A stretch of DNA of 64,000 nucleotides, from positions 1 through 64,000 of IMG/VR virus record IMGVR_UViG_3300020202_000002; one strand, written 5' to 3'. The notes under the pieces are model-generated. The model saw only the letters and a program-made list of their open reading frames with translations. It was not told where the DNA came from and did no database searches. The position numbers and the translations under genes were made by a program. Of the stretch, positions 28,051 through 45,679 are shown in pieces. The DNA is from a virus. Each line of letters begins with the position of its first letter. Positions within the stretch are counted from its first letter, which is position 1.

Positions 28051-28409
28051 CTCGGGAATTCGGCCTTGACCCGTTCGAGATGCAGAGAACGTGGACCAAC
28101 CGGCAATACATGGAGGCCATGGCATGGCTTGTGGAGCAGCGCAACCATCCGACCGTCGATCAGCAGTACCAGATGCAAATCGCCATGCTGGTGGACAGCA
28201 TCGTACCGCGGATCTTCGGCAGGACGTATCAGGGCAAGCTGCAAGACAAGAAGCTCGTGTGGAGAACGGAAGAGGACGACGACCCGCAATCGCTGGAAGA
28301 GCGCAAACGGGTCTTCAGCCAGATGATGCTGGCGCGCTGGAGGGCGGTGGCCGAAGGTGGCGGTAAACGAGCAAGAAGTCGGACGGATGGTCGTACGATT
28401 GCTGGGTGA
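28017..28409 (+). CDS. gpT-like frameshifted extension of the tail chaperone
   Basis: no stop in the -1 frame from 28011 to 28409; WFHLAREFG resembles gpT. Confidence 0.75.
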   Translation, partial: LAAYRAGWFHLAREFGLDPFEMQRTWTNRQYMEAMAWLVEQRNHPTVDQQYQMQIAMLVDSIVPRIFGRTYQGKLQDKKLVWRTEEDDDPQSLEERKRVFSQMMLARWRAVAEGGGKRARSRTDGRTIAG

Positions 28410-31035
28410 CTCCAGCAGTTATGAGGCCATGATGCGCCAAGCGGCCGCCACCACACGCGCCGCCGTCGCCTCCATGGGAACCGCCATGACGGCTGGCATA
28501 ACCGCTCCGTTCGCTGGCGCTGGCGTGATGGCCGTCAGCGCTGCCGCGCAGATGGAACAGGCTCAAGTCCAGTTTTCGACCATGCTGCAGTCCGAAGCCA
28601 AGGGCATGCAGATGGTCAAGGACCTCATCCAATTCGCGGCTGCCACCCCGCTGACGACGCCGGAAGTGACGACGGCGGCTCGCACGCTGCTGCAGTTCGG
28701 CGTTGAGGGCGAAAGGGTCATCGAAACGTTGCGCATGCTCGGCGACGCTGCCGGCGGCGACTCCCAGCGCTTCCAGTCCATGTCGCTGGCGTTCGGGCAG
28801 ATGTCCGCGGCCGGCCGGCTGATGGGGCAAGACTTGCTGCAAATGATCAATGCCGGTTTCAACCCGCTTCAGGAGATTTCACGGACAACCGGCAAGTCGA
28901 TGGGGCAACTGAAAAAGGAGATGGAGGATGGCAAGATTTCGGCGGCGATGGTGACGGCAGCGTTTCGCTCGGCCACGAGTCAAGGCGGGCGATTCTTCAA
29001 CATGATGGAGAAGCAGTCGCAGACGGTCACTGGCCTGTGGTCCACGATGCGCGACAACGCCAGCCTCTTCCTGGTCACGCTGGGCGACATGATCATCAAG
29101 CAGCTTCACGTCAAGGACGCCATCAAGGCCGTATCTGCCGCCGCAGGGGACGTTGGCAACTGGCTCAAGTCGCTGAGCCCGATGGCTCAGAAAGCAATGT
29201 TGGCCGTGGCGCTGATCGCATCAACCCTGGGGCCGCTGCTGATCGTCCTTTCGGCCGTTGGCCCGGCTGTCGTCGCCGGCTTCGGCTTGTTCATGTCGAC
29301 TGTCCTGCCCATCGTTGGTGTCGTCGGCGTGGCGGTCGCTGCGGTCGCTCTCTGGGTTCGCTCAGTGGGTGGCCTGGGGCCAGCGTGGGCGCTCGTAGCG
29401 GAGAAGGCAGGGGCGGCGTGGGCGTTGATTAAGGACGCGGCCATGTCGGCATGGACGTGGATCACCACCAACTTCGGCAGCATTGCTTCGTGGATTGCGC
29501 CCCTGTTTGCGGGCGCTGGAATAGAGATACTCGCCACGATCACGCTGATAATCGCGGCAGTGAAGGCAGTCGGAGCAATCTTCACGTACCTCAAGGGTGT
29601 TTTCTTCGAGAACTACGATGCCATCAAGGCAGTCAGCGATGGCTACTTGACACTCGCTGGGCGCGTGCTGATGGCTATCGGCATCACCAAACTGTTCCTG
29701 TTCGCGGCTGGCCTCGTCATTGGGGTTCTTAAGGCTCTCGGCATCGTCCAGTTGGCCACGAACATTCTGTGGGTCGGCTGGGCTATCAGTTTGGCGACCG
29801 TCAAGGGACTCGTCGCCATAGTCACAGGCGTCATGCTGGTTGCTCAGGCGGCGACGTGGCTGTGGAACGGCGCTCTGACGGTCATGAACATACTGCTCTC
29901 GCCGGTCGCCATTCTTGGAGTGGTTGCGGCGATCGGCGTACTGGTGGCGATTCTCGCTGTCGCCGGCTCGGCGCTCTACGGGCTGTACAGCGCTGGCCAG
30001 CAGCTTATCGGCACGCTCACAGGGCTCAGTAACACCACGCTCGGCACGCACCTGTCTTCCGTCTTCGGCGAGTGGAAGACGATCCTCACGGATGTGTTCA
30101 ACCTCGCCAAGTCGGGCGACTTCTCCGGCGCGTTCGAGATGCTGAAACTCGGCGCGGACCTGGCGATCAACCAGGTGAAGGACCTGTGGCCGCCCTTGTG
30201 GAACTTTATCAGAGATGGTTTCGGGCATTTGTGGACCATCGTCTCGACGACGTTCATGGTGGAAATGCAGCGTGCGCTGATCAACGTCAGCAACAGGACA
30301 CTTGACTTCCTGACAAGTTGGGACAAGACAGGGATGCTCACGAGTGGCCTGCGATCCGGTGTCGGCACACTGCTCAATAGTTGGAACGCCGGTCTGTCGC
30401 AAAGCGAGAACAACGTCAACCGGTCCACCTTCGCGCTGGGCCAGATGGCAAATCAGTTTCAGGCGGTCGAATCAGCCGCAACTCAAGCCTCGCGAGCGAA
30501 CGTCGAGGTGGCCAATCTCGAACGTGAGTACGCGAACTTCTTCCGCGATCGCGACGCCGCTGACGACATGAATCACTGGGTCGTCAACGCCACGGAACAG
30601 TTCGACGAGTTCGGCAATGTCGTCGCCAGTTCGGACGCAGCAAGCCAAGCCAGCCGTCTCGGCGCGCAAACCGGCGAAGCACTCGCCACCGGGGTCAAGA
30701 AGCATGCCGGCCATGCAATGGACAGTTTTCAGGCTGCAGCAGTCGGCAGTGCCGAAGCCATCGCCCGCATGAATGCCTACCGGGACACCTTCCGGCAGAT
30801 GGGTTTCTCCGCGAACGCCCTGGCAGGCGGGACGACGCCAGCGACAACTCTGGCGGGAGCGAGCACAGCCGCCAGCCCCACGACATTAGCTAACGTGGTA
30901 TCGCCTCCGGGACGAACCGACAACACCCAAGAACACCTCGCTGTTCTCAAGGATATCCTGCATCAAGCCAAGCTGCAGACCGCCATCATGCAGCGCGAAA
31001 CCGGTGTGATTCTGGAGGAAGTGGACCTGGAATGA
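28357..31035 (+). CDS. tape measure protein
   Basis: 892 aa, Ala-rich; FAAATP...GQDLLQMINAGFNPL tape-measure domain; hydrophobic middle. Confidence 0.92.
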   Translation: MAVNEQEVGRMVVRLLGDSSSYEAMMRQAAATTRAAVASMGTAMTAGITAPFAGAGVMAVSAAAQMEQAQVQFSTMLQSEAKGMQMVKDLIQFAAATPLTTPEVTTAARTLLQFGVEGERVIETLRMLGDAAGGDSQRFQSMSLAFGQMSAAGRLMGQDLLQMINAGFNPLQEISRTTGKSMGQLKKEMEDGKISAAMVTAAFRSATSQGGRFFNMMEKQSQTVTGLWSTMRDNASLFLVTLGDMIIKQLHVKDAIKAVSAAAGDVGNWLKSLSPMAQKAMLAVALIASTLGPLLIVLSAVGPAVVAGFGLFMSTVLPIVGVVGVAVAAVALWVRSVGGLGPAWALVAEKAGAAWALIKDAAMSAWTWITTNFGSIASWIAPLFAGAGIEILATITLIIAAVKAVGAIFTYLKGVFFENYDAIKAVSDGYLTLAGRVLMAIGITKLFLFAAGLVIGVLKALGIVQLATNILWVGWAISLATVKGLVAIVTGVMLVAQAATWLWNGALTVMNILLSPVAILGVVAAIGVLVAILAVAGSALYGLYSAGQQLIGTLTGLSNTTLGTHLSSVFGEWKTILTDVFNLAKSGDFSGAFEMLKLGADLAINQVKDLWPPLWNFIRDGFGHLWTIVSTTFMVEMQRALINVSNRTLDFLTSWDKTGMLTSGLRSGVGTLLNSWNAGLSQSENNVNRSTFALGQMANQFQAVESAATQASRANVEVANLEREYANFFRDRDAADDMNHWVVNATEQFDEFGNVVASSDAASQASRLGAQTGEALATGVKKHAGHAMDSFQAAAVGSAEAIARMNAYRDTFRQMGFSANALAGGTTPATTLAGASTAASPTTLANVVSPPGRTDNTQEHLAVLKDILHQAKLQTAIMQRETGVILEEVDLE

Positions 31036-32438
31036 GCGGCACGTACCGAGGACCGTTCGGCATCAGCGGCTCGATCGACGCCGAAGGCTACCGCACGTAC
31101 AAGGTCAAGCACAGGGTGGAATTAGAACCGGGCGAATCCGCCCTGACGGCGCTGCTGACTCCGGGCTTGCCGCTGCCTGGGGCTATCTTCTCTCTTGCCT
31201 CCATGGGCGTGGCGTCGTCGGAAGTCGACCCGTGGGTCTGGTGTCTCCCCGAGATGGAAGCCAGCAAACTCGGCCGTGATACCGAAACCGGCGGTATATG
31301 GGTCGTTGAACAGACGTTCTCGAACAAGCCACCCAAGCGTTGCGCCTCGTTCCAGTTCGACAATCCTCTGCTTGAGCCGCAGAAGGTATCCGGCGACTAT
31401 CGCATGAACCGGGTCGAGGCCACGCACGACATTTACGGTGACCCCATCACCAACAGCGCCCACGAGCAGATTCGCGGCCCGCAAGTCGAGTTTGACGACG
31501 GCTCGCCCACCATCAAGATCGAACAGAACGTCGCCATTCTTGATCTGCCACTACTCACGCAGATGCAGAACGCCGTGAACGCCTTTCCGATGTGGGGGCT
31601 GCCGGCGCGGACGATTAAGATATCGAAGATCTCCTGGGAGCGAAAATTCCATGGGGCCTGCTTCGTCTACTTCACGCGCAAGTTCGAGTTCGACTGTTCC
31701 GAGAGAAAACAGCAGCGAATTAAGGGTGCTCCGGCCACGTCATCGTTCGACCGCGAGGTGGTGGACGAAGGTACGAAGGCACTCCGGGGAAAGTGGGCCT
31801 CAAACGGCACATGGGAACTGATCAACATCAATGGTCAACCACCGGACCCGTCGAATCCATCGCACTTCGACCGCTACAAGGATAAAAACGGCGAGAACGC
31901 GAAGGTCATCCTTGACGGCCACGGCAAGCCCTACATCCCCGAAATCGAATACGTCCCCGGCAGCGGCAACTGCTCCGAATGCACGTCGACCCCCAAGTAT
32001 TTCGTCGTGCGCGGCTTCACCGATTTCGAGGCGCGAAACAGCAGTGCCGTCACGACAAGCATTCGCGGGACACTGTGGAACGACGTGCAGCTGGAATACG
32101 TCAGCGGTTGTGATTGGGTGGCCACCGTCGACATGGGTAACAGCCAGACGGCTAACCTGCAAATCAGCGTCTCGGGCGACACGGCGACGCTGACGATCAG
32201 TTTCGCCGGCTACACCTTCGAGTTCGAGGGCGACTTCTCCTGCACCGGCCAATTTGCCCTGGACGACATCACGAGCGAGAGCCAGTTCTTGTTGAACGAC
32301 GTGCCAGACAATTTGCCGACGACGGTGCAGATTTCCTCCCCCGGCGGCGATCCGCCCGGATCGATCAGCGTGCAGTATTACCAGGAAGCCGACTTCAGCC
32401 TGCTACGGATTCCGATGGACCTGCAGGTGCAGATTTAG
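31032..32438 (+). CDS. tail hub/distal tail protein
   Basis: directly after the tape measure gene; PITNSAHE; ends YQEADFSLL. Confidence 0.6.
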   Translation: MSGTYRGPFGISGSIDAEGYRTYKVKHRVELEPGESALTALLTPGLPLPGAIFSLASMGVASSEVDPWVWCLPEMEASKLGRDTETGGIWVVEQTFSNKPPKRCASFQFDNPLLEPQKVSGDYRMNRVEATHDIYGDPITNSAHEQIRGPQVEFDDGSPTIKIEQNVAILDLPLLTQMQNAVNAFPMWGLPARTIKISKISWERKFHGACFVYFTRKFEFDCSERKQQRIKGAPATSSFDREVVDEGTKALRGKWASNGTWELININGQPPDPSNPSHFDRYKDKNGENAKVILDGHGKPYIPEIEYVPGSGNCSECTSTPKYFVVRGFTDFEARNSSAVTTSIRGTLWNDVQLEYVSGCDWVATVDMGNSQTANLQISVSGDTATLTISFAGYTFEFEGDFSCTGQFALDDITSESQFLLNDVPDNLPTTVQISSPGGDPPGSISVQYYQEADFSLLRIPMDLQVQI

Positions 32439-32445
32439 GTGAGCC

Positions 32446-32871
32446 ATGGCCAATGAGATTCAGGCGCGCGTAAGCCTCTTCGTCAGTGCCGACAACGTGC
32501 GCTATCAGTCTCCGCAGCAAGCCTTCAATGTGACGATGACGGGACGCAAGGGGCCGACTCCTGCCCTCGTCGAGGCCACCACGAACGGCACCGACGTGAA
32601 TCTGAGTTTGCTTGACACTCCCGGTATGTGCGAGGTCATCAACCAGGACTCGTCGAACTACATCACGCTGGGGCGCTGGGATTCGACCACCAGCACGTTC
32701 TACCCCTTCATGGAGGTCGGGCCTGGCGAAAACTACATCTGGAAGCTGCCGCGCGATATCAACGACGAATACTCCGGGACAGGTACAGGAACAGGCAGCA
32801 ACACAAGCACGCTTCGCATCAAGGCTGCCAATGCGCCGTGCAGCGTACTGCTGAACGCCTTCGAGCGCTGA
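32446..32871 (+). CDS. tail-associated protein with GTGTGTG tract
   Basis: beta-rich; YSGTGTGTGSNT; lies in the tail block. Confidence 0.6.
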   Translation: MANEIQARVSLFVSADNVRYQSPQQAFNVTMTGRKGPTPALVEATTNGTDVNLSLLDTPGMCEVINQDSSNYITLGRWDSTTSTFYPFMEVGPGENYIWKLPRDINDEYSGTGTGTGSNTSTLRIKAANAPCSVLLNAFER

Positions 32872-32878
32872 GGACATT

Positions 32879-33295
32879 ATGCCGCGCCTGATCGAAACCG
32901 AGGCTATCTATCTCGAAGGCGTGCAGGATGCGCAGCCCGTCGAGCACGTCGGCATTTACCAGGTGACCAGCAGCGAACAACTATTCGGCCCGCGGCACAT
33001 CGTCGTCCTGCAAACGAAGACGGCGCTGCTGGAATTGACCGGTGGCTGCTGGGTCAAGGATGCGGCAACGTTGCGGATCGCCAACAACACAGGCACGAAC
33101 CTGCAGGTGCGACCAACAGCGGAAGAGCGCGCCCGTCTCGACGCAGCCGTTGTCGAGGTGTTTCTGGGTGACGAACTGCTCGGCTACGTTCGCCCTGGCC
33201 GTTCGCTGCGATATGAACCGAGTGACTTGTCCCGGCTGTCGTTGCGGTGCCAGAAGGGCGGCGCGCGCTGTGTCGTGGTCGTCTACCCACGGTGA
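32879..33295 (+). CDS. tail-associated protein
   Basis: size and pattern similar to the preceding ORF. Confidence 0.55.
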   Translation: MPRLIETEAIYLEGVQDAQPVEHVGIYQVTSSEQLFGPRHIVVLQTKTALLELTGGCWVKDAATLRIANNTGTNLQVRPTAEERARLDAAVVEVFLGDELLGYVRPGRSLRYEPSDLSRLSLRCQKGGARCVVVVYPR

Positions 33296-33298
33296 CCC

Positions 33299-33508
33299 AT
33301 GGGCAGGAAAAGGCGGCCCCGAAAAGTCCGGATATGGGTGCGCTGCCTGGGTCCAGGACCGGAACACACGTTTGTGACGAGCGACCCGATAGGCCACCGC
33401 ATCTGCCGCGACTGCAAGAAGGCAATCGAGGCGAAGCGGATCTGTGACCGGTACGAGCCCTACCTGCGGGCGCAGGACGTGCGGAACGGATTCTTCAAGG
33501 AAACGTGA
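33299..33508 (+). CDS. small basic Zn-binding protein
   Basis: RCLGPGPEH...HRICRDC. Confidence 0.5.
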   Translation: MGRKRRPRKVRIWVRCLGPGPEHTFVTSDPIGHRICRDCKKAIEAKRICDRYEPYLRAQDVRNGFFKET

Positions 33509-34302
33509 TGGTGCGGGTACTCACGAGAGCGGACATCGGCAAGCTGGGGCGCTTTGTGCGCGACCAGCGAACCAGCCGCCCGCGCATGCGCCCGCGTCAT
33601 CCCGAAGTGCTCGGCTCGTCGCCCGACCGCTACATTGTCGGCACCGGGGAAGGTATCACGAGCTGTCGCGGTACGGCGGATTGCCAGGTGTACCGGCTCA
33701 ACGATGGGACGCTGGAGGCTGTTGACGGGCTGACGGTGCTCGTCACGAACCCGGACGGAACGGATATTCCGGCGAGCAGCTACGCCTTGGCCGTGCGTGA
33801 CAAGTTCGGGCAGTGGGTGACGAAGAAGGTGTTCGAGTGCCCGCAGTGGTATTGCGTGGAGGCACCGGAAAGTACAGGGACAGGTACGGACATCGACTGT
33901 GGCAGTCCGACTTGTTGGGTGTTCGTGCTCAGTAGCGACCTTCACAACGGCGAGTCGTTTCCCGGCGATTTCCAGTGCGGCAGCGATCCGAATATACCTG
34001 GTATCCTCAAGTTCGTCAGCACATGTCGCTGGGGCGGTGGTGGCGTCTGCCTTCCCTGCAACCAGGTTGGCGGCAGCAATGCGAACCTCCAATACAACTT
34101 TGCGGAACTGGTTTGGGAGTTCCAAATCGACACGCTGGTGTACAGGTTCAGCGGAGAACTGTCGCGATCCACGCAAAACGTATTCACGCTATACTCGACG
34201 GGCGTCCCATATAACACGAATCCTGGCGCTTTGGTTCCTAATTTCGTAACGGTTTATGACGGCGACACCTACCTTGGCAGCAACTGGTGTTCATCTTGTT
34301 AG
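33505..34302 (+). CDS. Cys-rich tail-tip protein
   Basis: CQVYRL.DG.LEAVDGL...RDKFG.WV module; STGTGT linker. Confidence 0.6.
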   Translation: MMVRVLTRADIGKLGRFVRDQRTSRPRMRPRHPEVLGSSPDRYIVGTGEGITSCRGTADCQVYRLNDGTLEAVDGLTVLVTNPDGTDIPASSYALAVRDKFGQWVTKKVFECPQWYCVEAPESTGTGTDIDCGSPTCWVFVLSSDLHNGESFPGDFQCGSDPNIPGILKFVSTCRWGGGGVCLPCNQVGGSNANLQYNFAELVWEFQIDTLVYRFSGELSRSTQNVFTLYSTGVPYNTNPGALVPNFVTVYDGDTYLGSNWCSSC

Positions 34303-34311
34303 TGGAACACG

Positions 34312-34821
34312 ATGGCCAAAAAGATTCCCGTCCTTACTGACGACGCCGCGGCAAAACTGCAGGACGCCTACGACCAGTGGGCCAAGTCGCCACCACCGAA
34401 CATCAACCGCCGAGATCCGGGTTGGGATGATCAGGACCTCCAGGCACCCGAAGAATATCTGGCCATCACGCAGACGGCGCTCGTCGCCGCGGAAGACTGC
34501 GATACCGGGTTCGACAGTGCCGAATGCCAAGTTTACCGGCTGGTGGACGGCGATCTGGAAGCCGTCGACGGCTTGGAGATTACCGCATGGAACCTGCTCT
34601 CGGAGGCAATCGCGTCTGGTACGCTCGTGCTCATCAGCCGCGACAAGTTCGGCTCCTGGGTCATCTCCGCAGTGTATGGCGAATGCGACACCGGAGCTGG
34701 CACTGCTACGGCTACCGCCACCAGCACCGATGACGGCTTGGACGCCGAAGGCGCGTGGTGGGCCGCGACACCTCCGAGCGGCGGTCAGTCTGGTGGGGCG
34801 TGGTGGGCGGGGACACCGTGA
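34312..34821 (+). CDS. tail-tip protein (paralogous modules)
   Basis: shares its N module with 33505 and its C module with 34821. Confidence 0.6.
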   Translation: MAKKIPVLTDDAAAKLQDAYDQWAKSPPPNINRRDPGWDDQDLQAPEEYLAITQTALVAAEDCDTGFDSAECQVYRLVDGDLEAVDGLEITAWNLLSEAIASGTLVLISRDKFGSWVISAVYGECDTGAGTATATATSTDDGLDAEGAWWAATPPSGGQSGGAWWAGTP

Positions 34822-35045
34822 TGGAGTGTCGACGGCTGACGATAGCGGAGAAGAATGCGCTGGTTGCCGATGGGTACACCGTGCTGGGTGGCCCCTACGA
34901 CTCGGAAGACCTTTGCACGGCAGCATGTGCAGCAGGCACGGCGACCTCGACGGACGATGGCCTAGACGCCGAAGGGTCCTGGTGGGCTGCAACGCCGCCA
35001 TCGGGTGGACAAACGGGCGGCGCGTGGTGGGCAGGAGAGGATTGA
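34821..35045 (+). CDS. small tail-tip protein
   Basis: GPYDSEDLC module shared with 35047; WWAATPPSGGQ.GGAWWAG shared with 34312. Confidence 0.55.
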   Translation: MECRRLTIAEKNALVADGYTVLGGPYDSEDLCTAACAAGTATSTDDGLDAEGSWWAATPPSGGQTGGAWWAGED

Positions 35046-35046
35046 T

Positions 35047-36858
35047 ATGGCAGAGTGCCTATTTCTGACGGATCAAGCGAAGGCCGATCTGGAATCTCTG
35101 GGCTGGACCTTCGTGGGACCTTACGAATCCGAAGACGCCTGCGTGAGCCAGAACCAGGAAACCGGCACTGGCACGTCCACTGGCACAGGGCACGTGTACG
35201 TCGACCTCACCTGTCCGGGCGAGCAACTGACCGGCGACCAGGAGGTAACGTTCGCCATCGGCGTCAGTGCCCCACACGTCACGACCCTGGAGGTGGATCT
35301 CGTCAGTACCGGCTGCTTCAGCATCACCTTCGCGACCACGACTGGGATCTCGTGGAGCGTCGGCGCGAACGGCGGGACGATCCAGTCCTTTCAGGGCAGC
35401 GTGTCGGCTGTCGCGAATGCGCTTGCGAGTATCACGGTGGTGACGACCACGCCATCGGCTACCGTCGACTTCACGGTCGCCGACATCGAGAACAGCAGCT
35501 ACGCCTTCGACGAATGCAACGTCGTCATCACGGCGACCGACACGGGGACGGGAACTGGCACTGGCACTAGTACTGGTAGCCCGTCGTCGGGATGCGGATC
35601 GCCAACGGAGCTACCGGCACCACCATTCAGCTACGAAGACAATAACATCGACGCGCAGAAGTGGTACCACGTCGAATTGGACCCTGGTACGACGTATGCG
35701 CTTTCGCTCATTGCAATAGCAGGTCACGACACCGTACGGCTGGAACTGTACACCGGCTGTGACGGCCACGGACGAGGAACAGGGTTTTTTGGCGCTGTAG
35801 ACACTGAATTCTCTGGACCCAACGAGTTCAGCTGCGGGGAGATAACTGGTATCTCCGACCTATGGATGCTGGCGGTCACTGTTGGAGCTACGTATCGCAT
35901 CGACATGGATCCTGGCACTTGCGGCAGCCAGACGGGGACAGGAACTGGCACGCTCACTGGTTGTGAAGAAGCGACCTCACTCACTCTCGGTGCTATCCAA
36001 GCTGGCAGCATCACTGGCACGTCGGAGCGTGACTGGTACGTCATGACAGGCCTGGACCCTGATACGCAGTACAGCATCAACCTGTGGACACAGGGCACAC
36101 CAGCTGGCGTTCTGACAGGGGCGCTGTACACGACATGCGAGCGCACCGGCGAAGGCTCAGGCGTGGGTGGGGTTCCCCAAATTCTGACGGCCGACAGCAG
36201 CGACTACGGCCAATGCTCGAACATCGTCGTGGGCGTGACGACGCTGTACATCGAGGTGCAGTACAACAACGCCGGCTCTGCGGATTACGAGCTGGCGGTT
36301 TACGAGGGGCTTTGCACGGATACCGGGACGGGAACAGGAACGGGGAGTGATGGGGGTGGCGCTGAGAGCCCACAGGGTCCACTGTTCCCAGGTACTGGCG
36401 CTAGCGATGCGTCGGTCGGCGTCACTGCGTGGACCAATCCTGGGAATATATCCGCTGATGATGGAGTGTACGCGACGTGTACGTCCAATTCGCCGCAATA
36501 CCTCAAAGCTACCAACTTCGGCTTCTCCATTCCCGATGGCGCGACAATCGACGGTATCGAGGTCAAGATTCAGCTGTTCAGGACCGGACCGCGCGTGCAC
36601 ACCGTGAGCAACGTTCGCATGGTTAAGGCGGACGGATCGATATCGACGACCAATCGCGCCTCCGACAACACGGTGATCAACACCACAGAAACTGAGAACA
36701 CGTACGGCGGCGACTCGATCCTGTGGGGGGAGACATGGACGGCGGCGGACATCAACGACGCTGACTTCGGAGTCGTTTTCAACTCCGCGCCCGGTGGAGG
36801 CAAGGGCATTCCCACGATCAGCGTGGATTGCATCACTGTGAAAGTTTGGTTCCATTGA
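35047..36858 (+). CDS. multi-domain tail fibre/receptor-binding protein with Thr-Gly linkers
   Basis: four TGTG tracts separate beta-rich domains; C-terminal AWTNPGNI...LKATNFGFSIP.GATIDGIEV domain. Confidence 0.65.
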   Translation: MAECLFLTDQAKADLESLGWTFVGPYESEDACVSQNQETGTGTSTGTGHVYVDLTCPGEQLTGDQEVTFAIGVSAPHVTTLEVDLVSTGCFSITFATTTGISWSVGANGGTIQSFQGSVSAVANALASITVVTTTPSATVDFTVADIENSSYAFDECNVVITATDTGTGTGTGTSTGSPSSGCGSPTELPAPPFSYEDNNIDAQKWYHVELDPGTTYALSLIAIAGHDTVRLELYTGCDGHGRGTGFFGAVDTEFSGPNEFSCGEITGISDLWMLAVTVGATYRIDMDPGTCGSQTGTGTGTLTGCEEATSLTLGAIQAGSITGTSERDWYVMTGLDPDTQYSINLWTQGTPAGVLTGALYTTCERTGEGSGVGGVPQILTADSSDYGQCSNIVVGVTTLYIEVQYNNAGSADYELAVYEGLCTDTGTGTGTGSDGGGAESPQGPLFPGTGASDASVGVTAWTNPGNISADDGVYATCTSNSPQYLKATNFGFSIPDGATIDGIEVKIQLFRTGPRVHTVSNVRMVKADGSISTTNRASDNTVINTTETENTYGGDSILWGETWTAADINDADFGVVFNSAPGGGKGIPTISVDCITVKVWFH

Positions 36859-36859
36859 G

Positions 36860-37495
36860 ATGGGAGTCGTCGTACCAGTCGTAGGACCGATGAGGAGCGG
36901 CACAAGCCTCGTCAGCAGCATCGTCCATGTTCTCGGCGTCTGCATGGGCGAGCGGTGGATAACCGAAGACCCAGAGTGGTGCAGGGACGGCTTCTGGTGC
37001 GATGACGAGTTCCACGAGCTATTTGTCGAGGTGCTCGGAGGATATCCCGGCCACTTCACCGTCGACACGTTCAACCGCGATGCGCTACCCAAGTTGAAGG
37101 ACCAGGTAGCCAAGAGGGAGGGGACCTACGTTCGCTGGGGCGTCAAGAGTCACCTGCTGTCCTTCGTCTGGCCTCACTGGTGGCCGCTGTGCTCGCACGA
37201 GATTCGAGCTATCTTCCCGTGCAGACCGCCCGCCGAGTCGATTGCGTCACTGGCGGCTAGAACCGGACACACCGAAGAATGGGCTGCGGACTACCTGCAA
37301 CCCTTCTTCGCGTCAGTGGCAGAAGCCAAGAGATTCCACGGGGAAAAGCTGTTCGTCGACTACGACACGCTCTTGGCTGACCCGGTAGCCGAGGTGGGCC
37401 GCATAGCGGAGTTCCTTGGCGTCAGCGTGACGCAGTACGCCATCGCCAGAGTCAAGCCGGAGTTGAGGCGATTCAATCAGCGCCTTCACATTTGA
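36860..37495 (+). CDS. sulfotransferase family protein
   Basis: PAPS-binding loop VGPMRSGTS; WGVK; R.P.ESIAS; VDYDTLLADP. Confidence 0.8.
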   Translation: MGVVVPVVGPMRSGTSLVSSIVHVLGVCMGERWITEDPEWCRDGFWCDDEFHELFVEVLGGYPGHFTVDTFNRDALPKLKDQVAKREGTYVRWGVKSHLLSFVWPHWWPLCSHEIRAIFPCRPPAESIASLAARTGHTEEWAADYLQPFFASVAEAKRFHGEKLFVDYDTLLADPVAEVGRIAEFLGVSVTQYAIARVKPELRRFNQRLHI

Positions 37496-38263: not shown

Positions 38264-39034
38264 ATGAAGTGGTCCTACGGCATCACCACCGTCCCGACAC
38301 GACGGCTGGACCTCTTGCCGCGCACGCTCGCCTCTCTCGCCGCCGCAGGGTTCGATAGACCACGCCTCTTCGTCGATGGTGGACTTCCCGGAAGCCAGCT
38401 CTACCGCGATCTCGGATTGCCGACCACCATCCGGGACCGCATCTCACGTGAAGTCAACGACCGCCCAAACACCACGGCCTATGGTCATCCGTTCGGCAAC
38501 TGGATGCTGGGGCTGCTCGAACTGTACGTCCGCGAGCCGCACGCCGATCGCTACGCGATGTTCCAGGACGATATTGTCGCCTGCCGCAATCTGCGGTCAT
38601 TCCTTGAGGCGTCCCCGTATCCGGACCGCGCCTATCTGAACCTGTACACGGTCCACTTTAACTACCGATTTTGCCCCAAGGATTCCCAGAAGTTGCCCCA
38701 GCGCGGCTGGTTCGTCACCTCGCAGCGCGGCCTGGGGGCAGTGGCAACCGTGTTCAGCCGAGATGCGTTGCTGGCGCTCTTCTCGAACGACCACATGGTC
38801 CGCCGGCCGATCGACAAGGGCCGCGGGCACAAGGCGGTCGACGGGGGAATCGTCGAGTCGATGAAGAAGGCGGGCTGGCGCGAATACTGCCATCACCCAA
38901 GCCTCGTGCAGCACATCGGCGACAAGAGCGCCATCGGCAACAACCTGAAGAACGACGACCCGGACAAGCACCACGCGACCTCGCCGACGTTTCCTGGCGA
39001 GAGCCACGATGCCCTGGAATTCCTCAGGGGGTGA
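38264..39034 (+). CDS. GT-A fold glycosyltransferase
   Basis: RLFVDG; YAMFQDD acidic motif; PSLVQHIG. Confidence 0.75.
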   Translation: MKWSYGITTVPTRRLDLLPRTLASLAAAGFDRPRLFVDGGLPGSQLYRDLGLPTTIRDRISREVNDRPNTTAYGHPFGNWMLGLLELYVREPHADRYAMFQDDIVACRNLRSFLEASPYPDRAYLNLYTVHFNYRFCPKDSQKLPQRGWFVTSQRGLGAVATVFSRDALLALFSNDHMVRRPIDKGRGHKAVDGGIVESMKKAGWREYCHHPSLVQHIGDKSAIGNNLKNDDPDKHHATSPTFPGESHDALEFLRG

Positions 39035-39037: not shown

Positions 39038-39298
39038 ATGGCGTGGAAGTGGGGCGACAAACTGAAGTCGGCATTCGAGCTGGTGGGCATCACCGAGGAT
39101 CGCGCCGCGAAGTTTCTGGGCGAGCATTGCAACTGCCCGAAGCGCCGAGAGGCTCTGAACGCCTTCAGCGACTGGGCCGAACGACTGGCAAGCCGCCTGA
39201 TGGGCGCGAAAGAGGAGCACGAAAAGGAAATCGTCAAGGATCAGGGCTTGCAGGAGCTGGAAGTCCTGATGGACCGACCACCGAGGAGCAACAAATGA
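39038..39298 (+). CDS. small conserved phage protein
   Basis: GDKL...CNCPKRREALN motif. Confidence 0.6.
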   Translation: MAWKWGDKLKSAFELVGITEDRAAKFLGEHCNCPKRREALNAFSDWAERLASRLMGAKEEHEKEIVKDQGLQELEVLMDRPPRSNK

Positions 39299-39981
39299 AG
39301 TGGGCCTACGGTGTGACCACTGTGCCCGAGCGTCGCAAGGATCTTCTGCCGCGAACGCTGGCCAGCCTTGAGAAAGCAGGATTTCCGGCCCCGCGGTTGT
39401 TTGTTGACGGGGCCACGTCTGGCGTCGAGTGGTCCGGACTGTTCGGTCTGGAAATCACGTTTCGCCACCCGAGGATGCACGCCTTCGGCAACTGGTTGCT
39501 CAGCCTACAGGAGCTTCTCATCCGCGAGCCGGCAGCAGATCGCTACGCCATGTTCCAGGACGATCTTGAGGCGTGCCGGGGGCTGAGGAGTTATCTGGAA
39601 AAGACCAGCATGGAAGGGCCGGTGTACCTGAACTGCTTCACGACGGCAGCAAGCGCCAACGGCGACGGCTGGCATCCATCCAAGCGTCCGGGAACCGGAG
39701 CTGTCGCCCTGGTGTTCAATCGTGAGACGGTAACGACTCTCCTTCAGCAGTCCTGGCTGCACGGTCAGCCGCTCGATGGCATCCGCCGCAAGGCTTACAT
39801 CGACGACTGCGTGAGGCGCTGCCTGCAACCGCTGTTCTACGTCGAAATGGTGCACGGCCCGAGCCTGGTGCAGCACACCGGTGCTTTGTGCTCCACAGTC
39901 GGCAGCAGTATGCAGCTGGTAGCGGATGGATGGAGCGAGAACGTGTTGGACGGCGCTGGCGCTTTGGTAGGACAAACATAG
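39295..39981 (+). CDS. GT-A fold glycosyltransferase (paralog of 38264)
   Basis: MKWAYGVTTVP.RR.DLLPRTLASL; YAMFQDD; PSLVQHTG. Confidence 0.75.
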   Translation: MKWAYGVTTVPERRKDLLPRTLASLEKAGFPAPRLFVDGATSGVEWSGLFGLEITFRHPRMHAFGNWLLSLQELLIREPAADRYAMFQDDLEACRGLRSYLEKTSMEGPVYLNCFTTAASANGDGWHPSKRPGTGAVALVFNRETVTTLLQQSWLHGQPLDGIRRKAYIDDCVRRCLQPLFYVEMVHGPSLVQHTGALCSTVGSSMQLVADGWSENVLDGAGALVGQT

Positions 39982-40006: not shown

Positions 40007-40804
40007 ATGAGGCTTGGGGTTGTTGGTGGGGGCGTAGTCGGCCACGCTATGGCGCGGGCGTTCATGGAGCATTCCGAAGGTGGCACTCGTGTCTACGACG
40101 TGGTGCCGGAGCGATGCACGCACTCACTTGAAGATGTTCTTTCCTGCGACCTGATCTTCGTCTGTCTGCCGACACCGGCGAATGAAGACGGGTCGTGCAA
40201 GACTTCGTTTGTCGAACAATTCTTTCGGGACGTTGGCACGTCCGCTTTCGCCGATCGCAACTTTGTGCTGCGGTCCACGGTGCCGGTCGGCACAACCAAG
40301 AAGCTGGGCGAACGCTACGGCGTCAAGAATCTGGTGCACTCGCCTGAGTTTCTGACGGCGCGATGTTCGGTGGCCGATGCGCAGGTACCGGCGCGGAACA
40401 TCGTGGGCATACCGCACCCCAGCGCGGCAACCAGCCTTCTCGCAGAGTTGTACAAGCGGCGCTTCCCAGGCATTCCCGTCCACATCACGACGAGCGACGA
40501 GAGCGAGGCCGTGAAGCTCATGCAAAACAGCTTTTTCCTTACGAAAATCGCCATTTTCAACGAGTTCTACCAGTTTGCCCAGGCGCGAGGGATGAACTGG
40601 TCTCGCGTACTGGCTGGGCTACTCAGCGACGGGCGGATTGCGCACGCCCACACTCAGGTTCCTGGTGTGGACGGCTTATTTGGCGCGGGCGGAGCCTGTT
40701 TGCCAAAGGACATCGCGAACCTCGTGCACTGCATGGGTGACGAAGCTGTCGTCATCCGCGCGGCGATGGAGAGGAATAAGCGGGACAGGGAGAGGGTGGC
40801 ATGA
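40007..40804 (+). CDS. UDP-glucose/GDP-mannose dehydrogenase family (short form)
   Basis: GGGVVG, FVCLPTP, STVPVGTT, PEFL, catalytic GGACLPKD; C-terminal domain absent. Confidence 0.88.
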   Translation: MRLGVVGGGVVGHAMARAFMEHSEGGTRVYDVVPERCTHSLEDVLSCDLIFVCLPTPANEDGSCKTSFVEQFFRDVGTSAFADRNFVLRSTVPVGTTKKLGERYGVKNLVHSPEFLTARCSVADAQVPARNIVGIPHPSAATSLLAELYKRRFPGIPVHITTSDESEAVKLMQNSFFLTKIAIFNEFYQFAQARGMNWSRVLAGLLSDGRIAHAHTQVPGVDGLFGAGGACLPKDIANLVHCMGDEAVVIRAAMERNKRDRERVA

Positions 40805-40980
40805 CGCTTGAAAATCGCATCGACGACATCCCATACGGTGGTGGCTGGTGGAAGTCGGCAGGTCGTGACATGTTCCTTGAACTTGCTCGCGAGATGATGC
40901 GCAAAGGTCTGACAGAGGAGGATGCCATTGGCATCCTCACATCGGCTTACTGCACAGTGGCAGCGGAGTTTGGCAATTGA
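40801..40980 (+). CDS. hypothetical protein
   Basis: 59-aa ORF coupled on both sides. Confidence 0.5.
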   Translation: MTLENRIDDIPYGGGWWKSAGRDMFLELAREMMRKGLTEEDAIGILTSAYCTVAAEFGN

Positions 40981-42248
40981 ACATCATCACCCACACAACC
41001 TGCCGCTGCTGCGGCTCCGAGAACATGACGCCCCTGTTTTCGCTGGGCGAGCATTTCGTGTCGGATTTCGTGGACCGCGAGCACATCTACGACGGTACCG
41101 AGTGCCCGATCGATCTGGAACAATGCCGCGATTGCACGCTGGTGCAGATGAAGCACACCGCGCCCCAGGAGTTGCTCTACAGCGGCCACTACTGGTACGT
41201 GTCGGGCCGGACGCAAACCATGCGAGATGCCCTGCGCGACGTTGCCGCAGCAGCCGAGCGCGTGGCCAACCTCAAGGCTGGTGACGTGGTGCTCGACATC
41301 GGCTCCAACGACGGAACGTTTCTGCGATCCTACGAAGTTTCCGGACTGATCAAGGTAGGCGTTGAACCGGCCAAGAACCTCGCTGAAGAAGGGGCGAAGG
41401 GCGTCGGCTACTTCTTCCAGGAGTTCTGGCCTCTGTCCGAGAGGACGCTGGAGAACATGCGTCTGGGCGGCGTCGATCTCTCCGGGGAGCGGAAGGCCAA
41501 GGTCATCACGGCGCTGGGGATGCTTTACGATGCCGAGGACCCGAATGCCTTCGTCGCTGGTGTTGCCAGGTGCCTAGCGAAAGACGGGGTCTTCATCGCG
41601 CAACTGATGTGCGCCAAGAACATGCTGGCCGTGGCTGACGTTGGCAACCTGTGCCACGAGCACCTGCTTTTCTTTTCATTGAGATCCCTCGAATCTCTCT
41701 TCGCCAAGCACGGGCTGGAAATCTTCGACATCGAGACGAATGCGGTCAACGGCGAAAGCTACCGTCTGTACGTTCGGCACAAGGATTCATGGATCGGCGC
41801 ATCGCCAGAAGCGTCCAACAGGTGGATAGACGCTTTCAACGCCGAGGCCAGCATTGGACTGAACGGTCCGGACGCGATGATGTTCTTCTACCGGCGCGCG
41901 TGCGAGAACCGACAAGCCGTCGTGGACTGCGTGCGCTCGGCTGTAGCGGACGGAAAGACCGTGGCAGTGCTTGGCGCGAGCACCAAAGGTAACACTTTGT
42001 TGCAGTGGTGGAGCTTCGATTCGTCCGTCATCTCGTTCGCAGCGGAGCGCTCGCCGGAGAAGCACGGCAAGTTCACGATCGGCACAGGCATCCCCATCGT
42101 CAGCGAAGAGGAGTTTCGGCGACGGCAGCCGGATTTCGCTTTGATACTCCCATACGCTTTTGAGGCAGAGATTCGCGAGCGCGAGCGCGAATGGCACGAG
42201 CGGGGAGGCAGGTTTATCTTACCCCTACCAGAAGTGAGGATCACATGA
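40977..42248 (+). CDS. NDP-hexose C-methyltransferase
   Basis: Zn site CRCC...CRDCTLVQ; LDIGSNDG; CHEH; GASTKGNTLL. Confidence 0.88.
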   Translation: MNIITHTTCRCCGSENMTPLFSLGEHFVSDFVDREHIYDGTECPIDLEQCRDCTLVQMKHTAPQELLYSGHYWYVSGRTQTMRDALRDVAAAAERVANLKAGDVVLDIGSNDGTFLRSYEVSGLIKVGVEPAKNLAEEGAKGVGYFFQEFWPLSERTLENMRLGGVDLSGERKAKVITALGMLYDAEDPNAFVAGVARCLAKDGVFIAQLMCAKNMLAVADVGNLCHEHLLFFSLRSLESLFAKHGLEIFDIETNAVNGESYRLYVRHKDSWIGASPEASNRWIDAFNAEASIGLNGPDAMMFFYRRACENRQAVVDCVRSAVADGKTVAVLGASTKGNTLLQWWSFDSSVISFAAERSPEKHGKFTIGTGIPIVSEEEFRRRQPDFALILPYAFEAEIREREREWHERGGRFILPLPEVRIT

Positions 42249-42403
42249 TGAGAACCGTGTGCGCGGCGTTTGCCGGTGTCCTACTAGCTAGCCTTTTCGG
42301 GTGGCCTAGTGTGCTCGTTCTCATCGTGTTCGTGCTGTGGGATATGCACAACGAGCTCTCCGCCACTGCGAAACCGACGCGACGGGAGCCGTTGCGTGAC
42401 TGA
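42245..42403 (+). CDS. small membrane protein
   Basis: hydrophobic; coupled. Confidence 0.4.
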
Positions 42404-42584
42404 CGCCAGCAACTACGCCTTGGCGCTTAGCAAGGCTCAGCGAGCCGTCAAACGCTTGTCCAACTTCAAGCCACCAGTTCGCAGGGGCCGGTCGTTGCGA
42501 ATGATGCAGCGAATCGGGCGTAACGATCCGTGCCCCTGCGGCAGTGGGGTGAAGTTCAAGCGGTGCCACGGAGCAAGGGAATGA
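42396..42584 (+). CDS. SEC-C motif protein
   Basis: [20 protein letters not shown]. Confidence 0.7.
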
Positions 42585-43573
42585 CGCAACGTGCGCTAAT
42601 AACCGGATGCGGTGGCCAGGACGGATCGTTCCTGTGTGACCTACTGTTGGAACGCGGCTATGAGGTCCACGGCATCGTCCGCCGTTCGTCCCTGGACAAC
42701 CTCGCCCGCATCGCCCACTGCCGCGACAAGATCATCCTGCACCAAGGCGACGTGACGGACGCCAGCTGCCTCGAAGGCATCATTGCTGACGTATCCCCGC
42801 ATGAGGTCTACCACGAAGCGGACCAGGACTCCGTAGGCTGGTCGCACGTCACCCCCGCGTACCAGGTCGAGGTCACCGTCAAGGCCACGGTGCATCTGCT
42901 CGAAGCCTGCCGCGTTCAGTGCCGCGAGGCGAGAATCTTCCTGCCATGCTCAGCCATGATGTTCGGCGACCCGGCATTTACCGACCTCACGGGCATGCAA
43001 GACGAGCAATCGCCGTTGAACCCGCAGAGCCCGTACGGCGTGGCGAAATGCCACGTCTTTTACATGGGGCGCATGTATCGCCAGCGGCACGACATGTTCG
43101 TGGCCAACGGGATCCTGTTCAACCACGACAGCGAGCGTCGTTCCGAGCACTACCTTCTGCACAAGATCTGCCGCGGCGTGAAACGCATCGCCGCCGGCCA
43201 GCAGCACACACTCGCTCTGGGCAACCTCGACGGCCGCGTGGACGTGGGCTATGCCCGCGATTACATGGAAGCTGCCATCGCCATGTTGCAGTTCAAGAAG
43301 CCCGACGACTTCGTGATCGCCACGGCGCAGGCGCATTCGGTGGAGGACATGGTGCACTTCGCCTTCCAGCGGGCGGGCATGAAGATCGGGCCGCGCGATC
43401 TGAGCAACTACATCACCGTGGATCCGCAGTTTTACTACCAGGCAAGGGGCATTCTGCGAGGCAATCCGGAGAAGGCGTGGAACTGCCTCAACTGGCGGGC
43501 GACAACGCACATCAAGGACCTCATCGGCATCATCATGGACGGCGAGAGGGCGGAAGGGGGCAAGGCAGCATGA
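42581..43573 (+). CDS. gmd: GDP-mannose 4,6-dehydratase-like protein
   Basis: [34 protein letters not shown]...[14 protein letters not shown]. Confidence 0.82.
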
Positions 43574-43848
43574 GTGTTACCCACATCGCGGGGCGACCCG
43601 TTGCTCTCCGCGGGCATCTGAACCGTGTCATCCAGCGGTGCGCCCTGTGCGGAGCGATGATGGACGACCGCAGCATCGGACTGATGATCGTGAAGGCGGG
43701 GCATGCGGGCCTGACGCCGTACCCCGAGGGCCACCTGATCCGGTTCAAGACGGAAGAGGGGCCGACCGTTCGCAGCGACCTGGGGCCGATCAATCAGCGG
43801 AACGAGTTGCCGGCCGACTTCTGCCTGAGGGATGTGGACAAGCAATGA
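43570..43848 (+). CDS. hypothetical protein
   Basis: VTHIAG...QRCALCG; coupled. Confidence 0.55.
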   Translation: MSVTHIAGRPVALRGHLNRVIQRCALCGAMMDDRSIGLMIVKAGHAGLTPYPEGHLIRFKTEEGPTVRSDLGPINQRNELPADFCLRDVDKQ

Positions 43849-44636
43849 GAGCACTATCGTGTCCGAAGATTATAGTTGATGGTCGCCAAGCAGAAGACTT
43901 GAGAGGCCGCGTATTCAACAGATTGACAGTGGAATCGCTGGGAGAAAGAGACCGACAGGGCAGGCTGCAATGGAAGTCTCGTTGTACGTGCGGCAATGTT
44001 GTCGTTTGTCGCCGTGATCATCTTACGTCAGGAAACACGCAAAGCTGCGGGTGTTTGCAGTACGAAATGTTTGTTAGGCGTATCACCACTCATGGTATGT
44101 CTGGAGGCAGGCGCGGCAGGATTCCCGAATACATAGTCTGGAACAACATGCACCAGCGTTGCTTCAATCCGGACAACCCGCGATGGCCACACTACGGTGG
44201 CCGCGGCATCTCTGTGTGCGATCGTTGGCAATCATTCTCGGCGTTCTTGGCTGACATGGGGCGAAGACCTGGCAAGGAGTATCAAATAGAACGCAAGGAT
44301 AATAACTCTGGATATTCGCCAGACAACTGCATTTGGGCAACATCGCACAAGCAAACCAGAAACACGCGGCGAAATCTGTTTCTCTCATTTGCTGGCAGAA
44401 CAATGTGCTTGACGGATTGGGCTAGCGAAATGTCATTGAGACCTGGATGCATACGCAAGCGACTTGCTCTAGGCTGGCCCATTGGTGACGCTTTGACATT
44501 GCCAGCCAAGCAAGCCGGTCCCCACTGGGAGCAATCGAAACTCAAGATTGGTGCAGCACATCGTGGTCGACAGTTAACCATTCGCCACCGAGCAAAACTT
44601 CGAGCCTCATGGTTAAGACGTAAAGGAGGCCAGTAA
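43845..44636 (+). CDS. free-standing HNH-type homing endonuclease
   Basis: DLRG.VFNRLTV, C.CGN, SCGC, YGGRGISVCDRW, IERKDNN.GYSPDNC.WAT. Confidence 0.85.
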   Translation: MRALSCPKIIVDGRQAEDLRGRVFNRLTVESLGERDRQGRLQWKSRCTCGNVVVCRRDHLTSGNTQSCGCLQYEMFVRRITTHGMSGGRRGRIPEYIVWNNMHQRCFNPDNPRWPHYGGRGISVCDRWQSFSAFLADMGRRPGKEYQIERKDNNSGYSPDNCIWATSHKQTRNTRRNLFLSFAGRTMCLTDWASEMSLRPGCIRKRLALGWPIGDALTLPAKQAGPHWEQSKLKIGAAHRGRQLTIRHRAKLRASWLRRKGGQ

Positions 44637-45679
44637 TGCTTCGCGTGGGGTCCGTGTCATACGCCTGCGAGCAAGGTTTAGGGCGTCTCATGAAGTCGTT
44701 CTACGCCGCTGGCATCGTCGACGATGTGATGGTCTACCGCCACACGAGTCCGAGCCGACCTACCCTCATGTCTTGGTATCCGCCAAGCACATTGGAGCTG
44801 GTTAACCGCCCGTTCAACGGTCCGACGGTCGACGCCTTCCTGAAGACAGTGGACGTGATGCTGTTCTGGGAGACGCCGTTCGACTGGGGCTTCATGGACT
44901 ACTGCCGGGCTCGCGGTGTGCGCACGGCTCTTGTGCCCATGAGCGAGTGGACCCCCCGGCGCCCACCCGCATGGTTCGATATCGTCATCAGCCCCAGCCT
45001 GGAGGACCACGACTACTTCAAGGACGGTCGGTTTGCCGGCTTCACGTTCCGCGAATGCTTCCTACCGATACCCGTTGACCCGTCGACCTGGCGTCAGCGA
45101 ACCGTGGCGAAGAGGTTTCTGCACAATGCCGGCCACCTGGGACACGGAGAGCACAAGGGTACGCGGCAGCTGCTTGAAGCCATGAAGCACGTCAAGAGCG
45201 ACCTGACGCTGACGGTTCGTGGTCAGCACGACAGCGGGCTACAGAACGTGCTGCGTCAGGTGTTCGGTGGCAACGGCACGCATCCGAAGGTCGAGGTCGT
45301 GGCGCGAGAGATCCCGTACGAGGAGTTGTTCACCGAGCACGACGTGTACGTGGCCCCGGAGAAGTGGAATCCGATTAGCCTACCGTTGCAAGAGGCGCGC
45401 GCTGCAGGAATGCTGGTGCTGACCACCGATCGGTATCCGATGAATACATGGCTGCCCAAGGAAGGCTTGATACCTGCCGAGACGATTCGAAGGGGCTGCG
45501 TGAGCCGGAATTACCTGGAAGTGTGCGAGGCAGTCGTGCGTCCTGAGGCGATCGCCGCCAAGATGGACGCCTGCTACGGCACCGATATCACCGCCTATTC
45601 GCAATCGGGCAAGGCGTGGGCCGAAGAACATTCGTGGGCGAACATGGCCCCGAAGTGGAGAGCATCACTGGAACTATGA
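44636..45679 (+). CDS. GT-B (GT4-like) glycosyltransferase
   Basis: HKGTRQLLEA; DVYVAP...LPLQEARAAGMLVLTTD; HSW. Confidence 0.8.
   Translation: MLRVGSVSYACEQGLGRLMKSFYAAGIVDDVMVYRHTSPSRPTLMSWYPPSTLELVNRPFNGPTVDAFLKTVDVMLFWETPFDWGFMDYCRARGVRTALVPMSEWTPRRPPAWFDIVISPSLEDHDYFKDGRFAGFTFRECFLPIPVDPSTWRQRTVAKRFLHNAGHLGHGEHKGTRQLLEAMKHVKSDLTLTVRGQHDSGLQNVLRQVFGGNGTHPKVEVVAREIPYEELFTEHDVYVAPEKWNPISLPLQEARAAGMLVLTTDRYPMNTWLPKEGLIPAETIRRGCVSRNYLEVCEAVVRPEAIAAKMDACYGTDITAYSQSGKAWAEEHSWANMAPKWRASLEL

Follow-up and report, generated by a model that had tools for sequence, protein, structure and literature searches.

The stretch of DNA analyzed here (the window) is the first 64 kb of the 88,746-bp virus record IMGVR_UViG_3300020202_000002, which carries direct terminal repeats and is estimated to be complete. 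The record belongs to an uncultured siphovirus, known here from sequence alone. Nearly all genes of the window lie on the + strand, as do all tail-tip genes, tracts, and sugar genes whose coordinates are given below, and their order is terminase, portal, capsid-like protein, and then tape measure (28357-31035, PHROG tape measure, E 1.3e-59). After the tape measure come p468 (31032..32438), p141 (32446..32871), p138, an open reading frame (ORF) of 69 amino acids (aa), p265 (33505..34302), p169 (34312..34821), a 75-aa ORF called pS (34818..35045), and the tail fibre (35047..36858). Short runs of alternating threonine and glycine (TG tracts) are spread over five of these tail-tip genes, and a cluster of sugar genes, which includes two putative glycosyltransferases of the GT-A fold, GTA1 (38264..39034) and GTA2 (39295..39981), starts one base past the fibre stop codon. 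An earlier reading of this DNA (the sequence-only reading) had proposed that the tracts are exposed Thr-rich linkers that serve as O-glycosylation sites for these enzymes, and it is this proposal that is weighed here.

Eight tracts were confirmed, all eight being present where the sequence-only reading had placed them. They are SGTGTGTGS in p141 (32773-32799, aa 110-118), STGTGT in p265 (33871-33888), TGAGTATATATST in p169 (34690-34728), AAGTATST in the 75-aa ORF, which is read in a different frame (34929-34952), and four tracts in the fibre, namely TGTGTSTGTG (tract 1, 35161-35190), TGTGTGTGTSTGS (tract 2, 35542-35580), TGTGTGT (tract 3, 35932-35952), and TGTGTGTGS (tract 4, 36322-36348). A six-frame scan of the window for the pattern ([TS][GA])x3 or longer returned 9 matches; all 5 of those in frames of at least 142 aa fall within 32.7-36.4 kb, and the remaining 4 are in frames of only 38-86 aa. 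Alternating TG runs of at least 5 aa occur 6 times in the five proteins, as compared to a mean of 0.065 expected when the residues are shuffled within each protein, and this number was reached in 0 of 20,000 shuffles. Among the proteins tested, only p141, p265, p169, and the fibre exceed the shuffles. The suggestion that shorter GTG/GTA motifs in the capsid, decoration, and head-closure proteins are additional sites did not hold up, the motif counts being at chance: 1 was observed in the capsid protein against 1.08 expected, and counts of 0-2 were obtained for each of the remaining head and tail-shaft proteins in the test, none with p <0.05.

The tracts make use of all four Thr and all four Gly codons. 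For Thr, the counts of ACG, ACA, ACT, and ACC are 11, 8, 8, and 7, respectively (208, 46, 23, and 140 in 15 reference genes), and for Gly the counts of GGC, GGG, GGA, and GGT are 9, 7, 6, and 3 (324, 88, 67, and 85 in the same genes). Rare codons are thus enriched, ACA and ACT together making up 16 of the 34 Thr codons in the tracts vs 69 of 417 in the reference genes. With Tandem Repeats Finder, only one weak 23-nt array was detected (35554-35576, score 32). A slippage-prone simple-sequence tract was therefore rejected, because near-perfect tandem DNA repeats are absent apart from this array and the codons are mixed. The tracts are selected at the protein level and are not made by slippage, which agrees with what the sequence-only reading had concluded from the varying codons. 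A collagen-like Gly-X-Thr repeat of the BclA type was likewise ruled out, the period of the tracts being 2 residues and the run length 5-13 residues.

The four tracts of the fibre have a very regular arrangement. The fibre has 603 aa when counted from the ATG at 35047, the ORF being open from a GTG at 35005; the ATG is probably the start, because the closest relative opens with the same MAECLFL. An N-terminal adaptor is followed by three domains, each ~120 aa long, and lastly by a C-terminal domain that is widespread, with a TG tract between each pair; from one tract start to the next the distances are 381, 390, and 390 nt, which corresponds to ~125-130 aa. The closest relative, P0002 (57% identity), is encoded on a 10.2-kb metagenome contig, L005. 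The tracts are conserved in the alignment of P0002 with the fibre; the two proteins differ by an insertion of two additional domains at tract 2 and by an exchange of the C-terminal domain right after tract 4. As the insertion and the swap fall exactly at tracts, the fibre tracts coincide with module junctions, and, to judge from the alignment and the regular spacing, they are interdomain linkers. The label of exposed linkers given by the sequence-only reading thus fits the fibre.

This arrangement is what a plain linker would account for, and it counts against a role in glycosylation. In the corresponding alternative, the tracts would be lineage-specific flexible linkers or hinges that are never modified, and the sugar cluster would act on the host envelope polysaccharide or receptor, or on another virion protein. 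A change of the host envelope would then mean exclusion of other phages or a change of serotype, and the cluster would be located beside the fibre by gene order only. The location of the tracts in low-confidence, flexible parts of the structural model is also in line with this explanation, which we consider on the whole rather unlikely in view of the p141 loop and the comparisons described below.

The P0002 alignment bears on another alternative as well, namely that the runs are mainly recombination joints, with similar ACN-GGN stretches promoting the shuffling of fibre domains for host-range change and any modification being incidental. Besides the two domains inserted at tract 2 and the C-terminal domain exchanged after tract 4, this would be consistent with the mutual identity of 67-83% among six 30-nt tract segments, and with the finding that the N-terminal adaptor and the Trp-rich tail modules (see below) occur in various combinations on the two sides of the tracts. 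On the other hand, the mixed and rare-enriched codons inside the tracts lower the DNA identity, which argues against selection for DNA homology, and both the p141 loop and the link to one transferase family would be left unexplained. We therefore regard recombination as a very improbable main function of the runs.

The tract of p141 is of a different nature. In the AlphaFold2 (AF2) model (pLDDT 78.7), this protein of 141 aa is a small, single all-beta domain that is jelly-roll-like, and the tract forms a low-confidence loop between strands 96-100 and 122-127. A search of the PDB with this fold was negative at E<=1e-3, and the matches beyond this cut-off are weak and jelly-roll-like. Because the tract is inside one domain, the label of exposed linker does not fit p141, and this part of the sequence-only reading has to be given up. 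A first set of 8 homologues has 34-42% identity to p141. In the total of 45 unique homologues, the loop position has GTGT or TGTG in 36 and at least GTG or TGT in 40, and of the 5 homologues without the motif 4 have the loop deleted or strongly shortened. That an intradomain loop is kept as GTGT(GT) in 36 of 45 homologues speaks against a plain linker, since the sequence of a simple spacer would not be expected to be preserved. If the TG runs are glycosylated, as we favor, the p141 run would, according to the model, be a surface loop.

The second element, the pair GTA1 and GTA2, consists of paralogous proteins of 228-256 aa with 46% identity, GTA1 being the proposed initiating enzyme. Neither was assigned to a family in Pfam or PHROGs at E<=0.01, nor in NCBIfam; a profile of 19 members matched no PDB sequence at E<=1, and a tblastn search with GTA1 against 50,697 deposited phage records gave no match at E<=1e-3. 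The AF2 model of GTA1, calculated from 19 family members, has a pLDDT of 86.4 and a pTM of 0.87. Compared to the PDB with Foldseek, it gives 341 matches at E<=1e-3, of which the top ones are all GT-A enzymes with query TM-scores of 0.43-0.60, among them POMGnT1, GnT-I, mimivirus R655/R699, LH3, COLGALT1, and the heparosan and chondroitin synthases. Asp102 and Asp103 of GTA1, in the sequence F-Q-D-D, are invariant in the 19 aligned family members, and their position suggests that they represent the catalytic DxD-type motif. With the predicted fold and the invariant Asp pair, the GT-A assignment stands at the fold level; as modeled, GTA1 is a GT-A fold member of an otherwise undescribed family. 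The GT-A pair that had been noted beside the tracts is therefore well founded at this level. At least 972 proteins were assigned to the family at E<=1e-5, the best 120 of which are all unnamed or "hypothetical" and without a Pfam domain, the longest contig behind these 120 being ~104 kb. L005 has both GT-A copies, while most relatives have one, and two copies were found in 7 of 80 loci.

Related phages were collected with alignments of two proteins. The scan with a first GT-A alignment gave 13 viral loci and the scan with an alignment of p468, the conserved tail-tip protein that adjoins the tape measure and serves as the marker of this phage group, gave 45; the loci from both scans share tail genes with the window. 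The sequence-only reading had pointed to relatives without the glycosyltransferase cluster as the place to look for missing tracts, and the p468 group includes such phages. TG runs were counted in all + frames of at least 70 aa, from p468 to the first transferase or up to +8 kb. Of the 46 rows (45 loci and the window), 12 were left out because no GT-A was visible and the sequence downstream was shorter than 5.8 kb. Among the others, TG runs of at least 5 aa are present in 21 of the 26 loci with GT-A and in 0 of the 8 without (raw Fisher p 7e-5), and runs of at least 4 aa in 24 of 26 and 3 of 8, respectively. This outcome favors the sequence-only reading. The p141 gene follows the same pattern (19/26 vs 0/8), and the joint absence of the runs and of p141 from the GT-A-negative relatives is a further observation that plain linkers do not explain well. 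The window phage has no TG tract in p468 itself; some relatives have TG insertions there (e.g., L008 and L014).

The same distribution is seen in whole records. Five GT-A-negative phages, including three with a completeness of at least 90%, were searched, and GT-A was found in 0 of 5, as compared to 5 of 5 positive controls. At the DNA level, TGTGT is encoded 6 times in 2 of these five negative records, twice in open frames (100 and 140 aa) whose coding status is doubtful and four times in shorter ones; none of the 6 matches is within the examined tail-tip stretch. Five GT-A-positive records gave 17 matches in 4 records, at 0.6-2.9 kb upstream of GT-A in all 4.

Where the first transferase is a different one, the tracts differ too. 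In eight loci, the fibre is directly followed by a protein of ~630-850 aa in which Pfam identifies GT2, methyltransferase, and DUF6171 domains, usually along with a second GT2. All 8 have poly-Thr, which occurs in 0 of 27 other loci, and TG runs are found in 0 of the 8. There are 2 to 19 poly-Thr runs (T4 or longer) per locus, beginning right after a domain with the motif RDKFGxW, which is also found in p265 (see below). Two of these loci, L151 and L161, have a GT-A further downstream and keep only a 4-residue GTGT, in p141 or p468. The poly-Thr runs and the GT2-methyltransferase-DUF6171 fusion are thus a second candidate tag-enzyme pair, as read from the gene content, and a joint that becomes poly-Thr along with the change of transferase (8/8 vs 0/27) is hard to reconcile with an unmodified hinge. 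L171, with another transferase set, has STG[AV]S repeats after the RDKFGxW domain, and the joint is not Thr-rich in L145, whose complete genome has a GT8-like gene only. Two observations concern the joints as such. L153, L166, L178, L151, L161, L162, and L163 have Cys-rich fibres with many poly-Thr or Thr-Pro runs, up to 28 consecutive Thr, and right behind these fibres come the GT2-methyltransferase-DUF6171 fusion and a second GT2. In L010 (7916-9244), the joint after an RDKFGxW-type domain is made of >20 copies of TGTGS followed by (PPTGSE)n, with GT-A and GT-B directly downstream.

The association was also examined from the side of the enzyme. A scan with the 19-sequence GT-A alignment gave 117 relatives, from which 80 loci were kept, forming 65 clusters at 90% enzyme identity. 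TG runs of at least 5 aa are found within 8 kb upstream of GT-A in 48 of the 64 clusters whose sequence extends far enough (122 runs in 506 kb), as compared to 1 of 47 within 8 kb downstream (1 run in 370 kb), and the median position of the runs is 2.0 kb upstream. Seventeen clusters have no BLAST-detectable homologue of p468, p141, or the p265/p169 N-domain upstream, and 14 of them still have runs, in varied proteins and at a guanine-cytosine content of 0.34-0.60. Such runs in unrelated proteins near GT-A are not what one expects of lineage-specific hinges. In clusters with the GT2 fusion in reach, TG runs occur in 0 of 3. We also considered whether the Thr-Ala variant of the tract is linked to the second GT-A copy. 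This was rejected, as Thr-Ala runs were found upstream in 1 of 65 clusters and are absent in the seven two-copy loci.

Taken from the side of the tract, the picture is very different. A scan of viral contigs for DNA encoding (TG)4 yielded at least 121 stretches, and 80 loci were fetched and scored for this GT-A only. In 36 of the 80 the tract is in an open frame of at least 200 aa. L023 is the one locus with GT-A, which is located directly downstream together with a GT-B; the other 79 have no GT-A of this family within reach. The GT-A is thus nearly always accompanied by TG runs, whereas TG runs mostly occur without this GT-A.

This last result is the first of several that weigh against glycosylation of the runs, and it is one of the stronger points for plain linkers. 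In addition, 16 of the 64 GT-A clusters have no upstream run of at least 5 aa; L141 has a poly-Gly joint although its GT-A is kept, as a plain linker would allow, and L173 has only TGTAT. No [ST]-Gly bias was found outside the runs, the fibre having 17/67 vs an S+T content of 0.23. The comparisons overlap, because some contigs occur both among the 45 p468 loci and among the 80 GT-A loci, so that the two sets are not independent samples. Shared descent is a further concern. A p468 tree built by a quick method, with good support for 6 of 40 inner branches, shows 3 changes of the GT-A state and 4 of the state with the GT2 fusion as first transferase. The independent contrasts number 1 when only well-supported branches are used and 3-4 on the best tree; all are in the predicted direction, but with so few a sign test cannot reach 0.05, and the number is too small to exclude shared descent, as plain linkers would have it. 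Finally, adjacent fibre and transferase genes may travel as one cassette, which would result in co-occurrence without a biochemical link.

Considering both sides, we find it somewhat probable that the TG runs, and presumably the Thr-Ala variants too, are acceptor tags for cytoplasmic O-glycosylation of tail-tip proteins. The main reason for regarding the runs as probable sugar-attachment sites is that runs and transferase go together across many related phages. The O-glycosylation proposed by the sequence-only reading is thereby partly supported, by the comparative genomics of uncultured phages: the tracts do lie beside a real glycosyltransferase cluster, and runs are found upstream of GT-A in 48 of 64 clusters, but the independent contrasts are few and (TG)n is common without the enzyme. 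From gene content and comparison we infer the modification of Thr, the responsible enzyme, the sugar, and the purpose, which would be protection from proteases or antibodies, or adhesion.

The genes of the cluster give some indication of how such a glycan could be made. The first one (36860..37495) encodes a sulfotransferase-like protein, with 27.4 bits to Sulfotransfer_3 (cut-off 27) and 25.5 bits to Sulfotransfer_1 (cut-off 22); it has an N-terminal loop PMRSGTSL, and the gene is missing from L005. Downstream of the GT-A pair, assignments from Pfam and PHROGs give a UDP-glucose dehydrogenase-like protein (40007-40804), a sugar C-methyltransferase (40977-42248), a GDP-mannose 4,6-dehydratase (42530-43573), and a GT-B glycosyltransferase (44636-45679). 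The dehydratase and the GT-B are separated by an inserted HNH endonuclease (43638-44636; PHROG 374, E 1.9e-61), in whose place L005 has a 102-aa ORF. Further downstream are a short-chain dehydrogenase/reductase (SDR) reductase (50453-51112), a hexapeptide acyltransferase (52199-53341), a weak GT2-like protein (53850-54950; 21.5 bits, under the Pfam cut-off of 23.3), a GT1-like protein (56889-57824), and a DegT aminotransferase (58764-59993). The order of the sugar genes in 40007-45679 is the same on L005, and is kept in part in many related loci. L005 reads p169 homologue, small ORF, fibre, GT-A pair, dehydrogenase, C-methyltransferase, dehydratase, GT-B.

In the mechanism that we propose, the soluble phage enzymes GTA1 and GTA2 would act before the tail is assembled or while this takes place, and would attach the first sugar to Thr residues in the flexible TG runs. 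Lengthening of the glycan could then fall to the GT-B, GT2-like, and GT1-like enzymes encoded downstream, with unusual sugars supplied by the dehydratase, the C-methyltransferase, the aminotransferase, the acyltransferase, and perhaps the sulfotransferase. The fibre runs would at the same time act as flexible joints, resulting in a fibre with sugar-coated hinges.

A more far-reaching version of the glycosylation reading can be formulated, although we think it rather less probable. Here, the phage-specific GT-A family of at least 972 members would read a portable (Thr-Gly)n tag, and tag and enzyme would form exchangeable pairs, i.e., TG with GT-A, poly-Thr with the GT2-methyltransferase fusion, and STGxS with a third enzyme. 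A short peptide code would in this way address glycans to selected loops and hinges of the tail tip. As a further part of this version, the sulfotransferase-like and UDP-glucose-dehydrogenase-like genes hint that the glycan of the window phage may be acidic and sulfated, in which case the fibre would be proteoglycan-like.

Several of the tract-bearing proteins are built from shared modules. The p265 protein has an N-terminal domain with the signature ..CQVYRL..RDKFGxW.., followed by its tract and a Cys-rich, variable C-terminal part. In p169, an N-terminal domain as in p265 is followed by TGAGTATATATST and then by a Trp-rich tail, AWWAATPPSGGQSGGAWWAG. The two N-domains are paralogues (repeat D4), while the C-terminal parts after the tract are unrelated. 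The 75-aa ORF combines a fibre-like N-terminal module, its AAGTATST tract, and a Trp-rich tail of the p169 type. A direct repeat of 98 nt, D2, joins 34714-34811 and 34938-35035 at 70% identity and encodes the tail STDDGLDAEG(A/S)WWAATPPSGGQ(S/T)GGAWWAG, which is C-terminal in both p169 and the 75-aa ORF. L005 carries the same pair of Trp-rich tails, its p169 homologue having the tract SAGTATATST, and it also has a homologue of the 75-aa ORF. This tail could be an aromatic sugar- or wall-binding peptide. The N-terminal module of ~32 aa (M-x-E-C-x-x-L-T..K..L...G-W/Y-T..G-P-Y..E-D-x-C) is common to the 75-aa ORF (34818-35045) and the fibre (35047-35160); it precedes the first tract and, from its sequence, may be an adaptor that both proteins use for attachment.

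The C-terminal domain of the fibre is by far its most widespread part. A HMMER search with the fibre among 1.84 billion representatives gave 8,964 hits, and in 148 of the best 150 of these the best-matching stretch is the C-terminal domain (aa ~440-603), the other two being the query and P0002. Among the same best 150 of the 8,964 hits, the domain often occurs in tandem within large proteins, and it has no Pfam family. At the DNA level, no relative was found among deposited phages (megablast, window 31-38 kb). Single-sequence scans of viral contigs with p468 or p265 gave no close relatives, and neither did a two-sequence fibre alignment used as query against viral contigs.

As for the host, the sole hint at a lineage in the window comes from a protein of the structural region (21284-22222) that weakly resembles PSCyt1, a planctomycete cytochrome c domain (23.7 bits against a cut-off of 22), and it was not taken as host evidence. 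An assignment through the GT-A matches was also considered. The two matches in the prokaryote collection are phage-sized contigs binned into metagenome-assembled genomes of Opitutaceae and Dehalococcoidia, and they were rejected as host evidence.

If the glycosylation reading is true, tail-tip glycosylation would be common in a wide group of uncultured phages, and about a thousand "hypothetical proteins" would obtain a function. Together with its soluble enzyme, a tag that is very short and can be transplanted could be used for cytoplasmic glyco-engineering and for the shielding of therapeutic phages. The co-variation of TG or poly-Thr with the enzyme would moreover provide built-in specificity controls for experiments.

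To our knowledge, self-glycosylation of virions has so far been shown only for a few mycobacteriophages. Mycobacteriophage virion glycosylation is reportedly the subject of Freeman et al. (2023, Cell Host Microbe 31:1216). Our literature search turned up neither a description of this GT-A family nor one of (Thr-Gly)n serving for glycosylation in phages, the supplements of Freeman et al. 2023, which possibly list glycosylated peptides, being outside its scope. In the mycobacteriophages Che8, Corndog, and Myrna, according to passages in two papers that cite this work, phage-made glycans are carried by the subunits of the capsid and the tail tube, at their C-termini (PMC12619734, PMC13445384). 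The proposal for the window phage is alike in that phage glycosyltransferases would O-glycosylate the phage's own structural proteins in the cytoplasm, with a glycan gene cluster in the genome. It differs, as far as those passages describe the mycobacteriophage sites, in that the candidate sites are internal (TG)n runs of tail-tip and fibre proteins, and also in that GTA1 has no tblastn match in the 50,697 deposited phage records.

SgtA of Clostridioides difficile attaches O-GlcNAc to Thr in the Gly-rich repeats of BclA3 in the exosporium (PMC7157674). The two systems have in common a dedicated soluble transferase and Thr in a Gly-rich repeat of a surface fibre protein, both of which are proposed for the window phage. 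Unlike the collagen-like Gly-X-Y triplets of BclA3, the repeat of the window phage is a dipeptide and extends over 5-13 residues only. In secreted cellulases, the O-glycosylated Pro/Thr-rich interdomain linkers are both flexible joints and glycan carriers, and in the serglycin core protein a Ser-Gly dipeptide repeat carries the proteoglycan chains. These proteins are modified in secretory compartments by unrelated enzymes, whereas the enzyme of the window phage would act in the bacterial cytoplasm. Compared to these systems, what we propose as new is the combination of an unannotated enzyme family, a short dipeptide tag, and targets at the tail tip.

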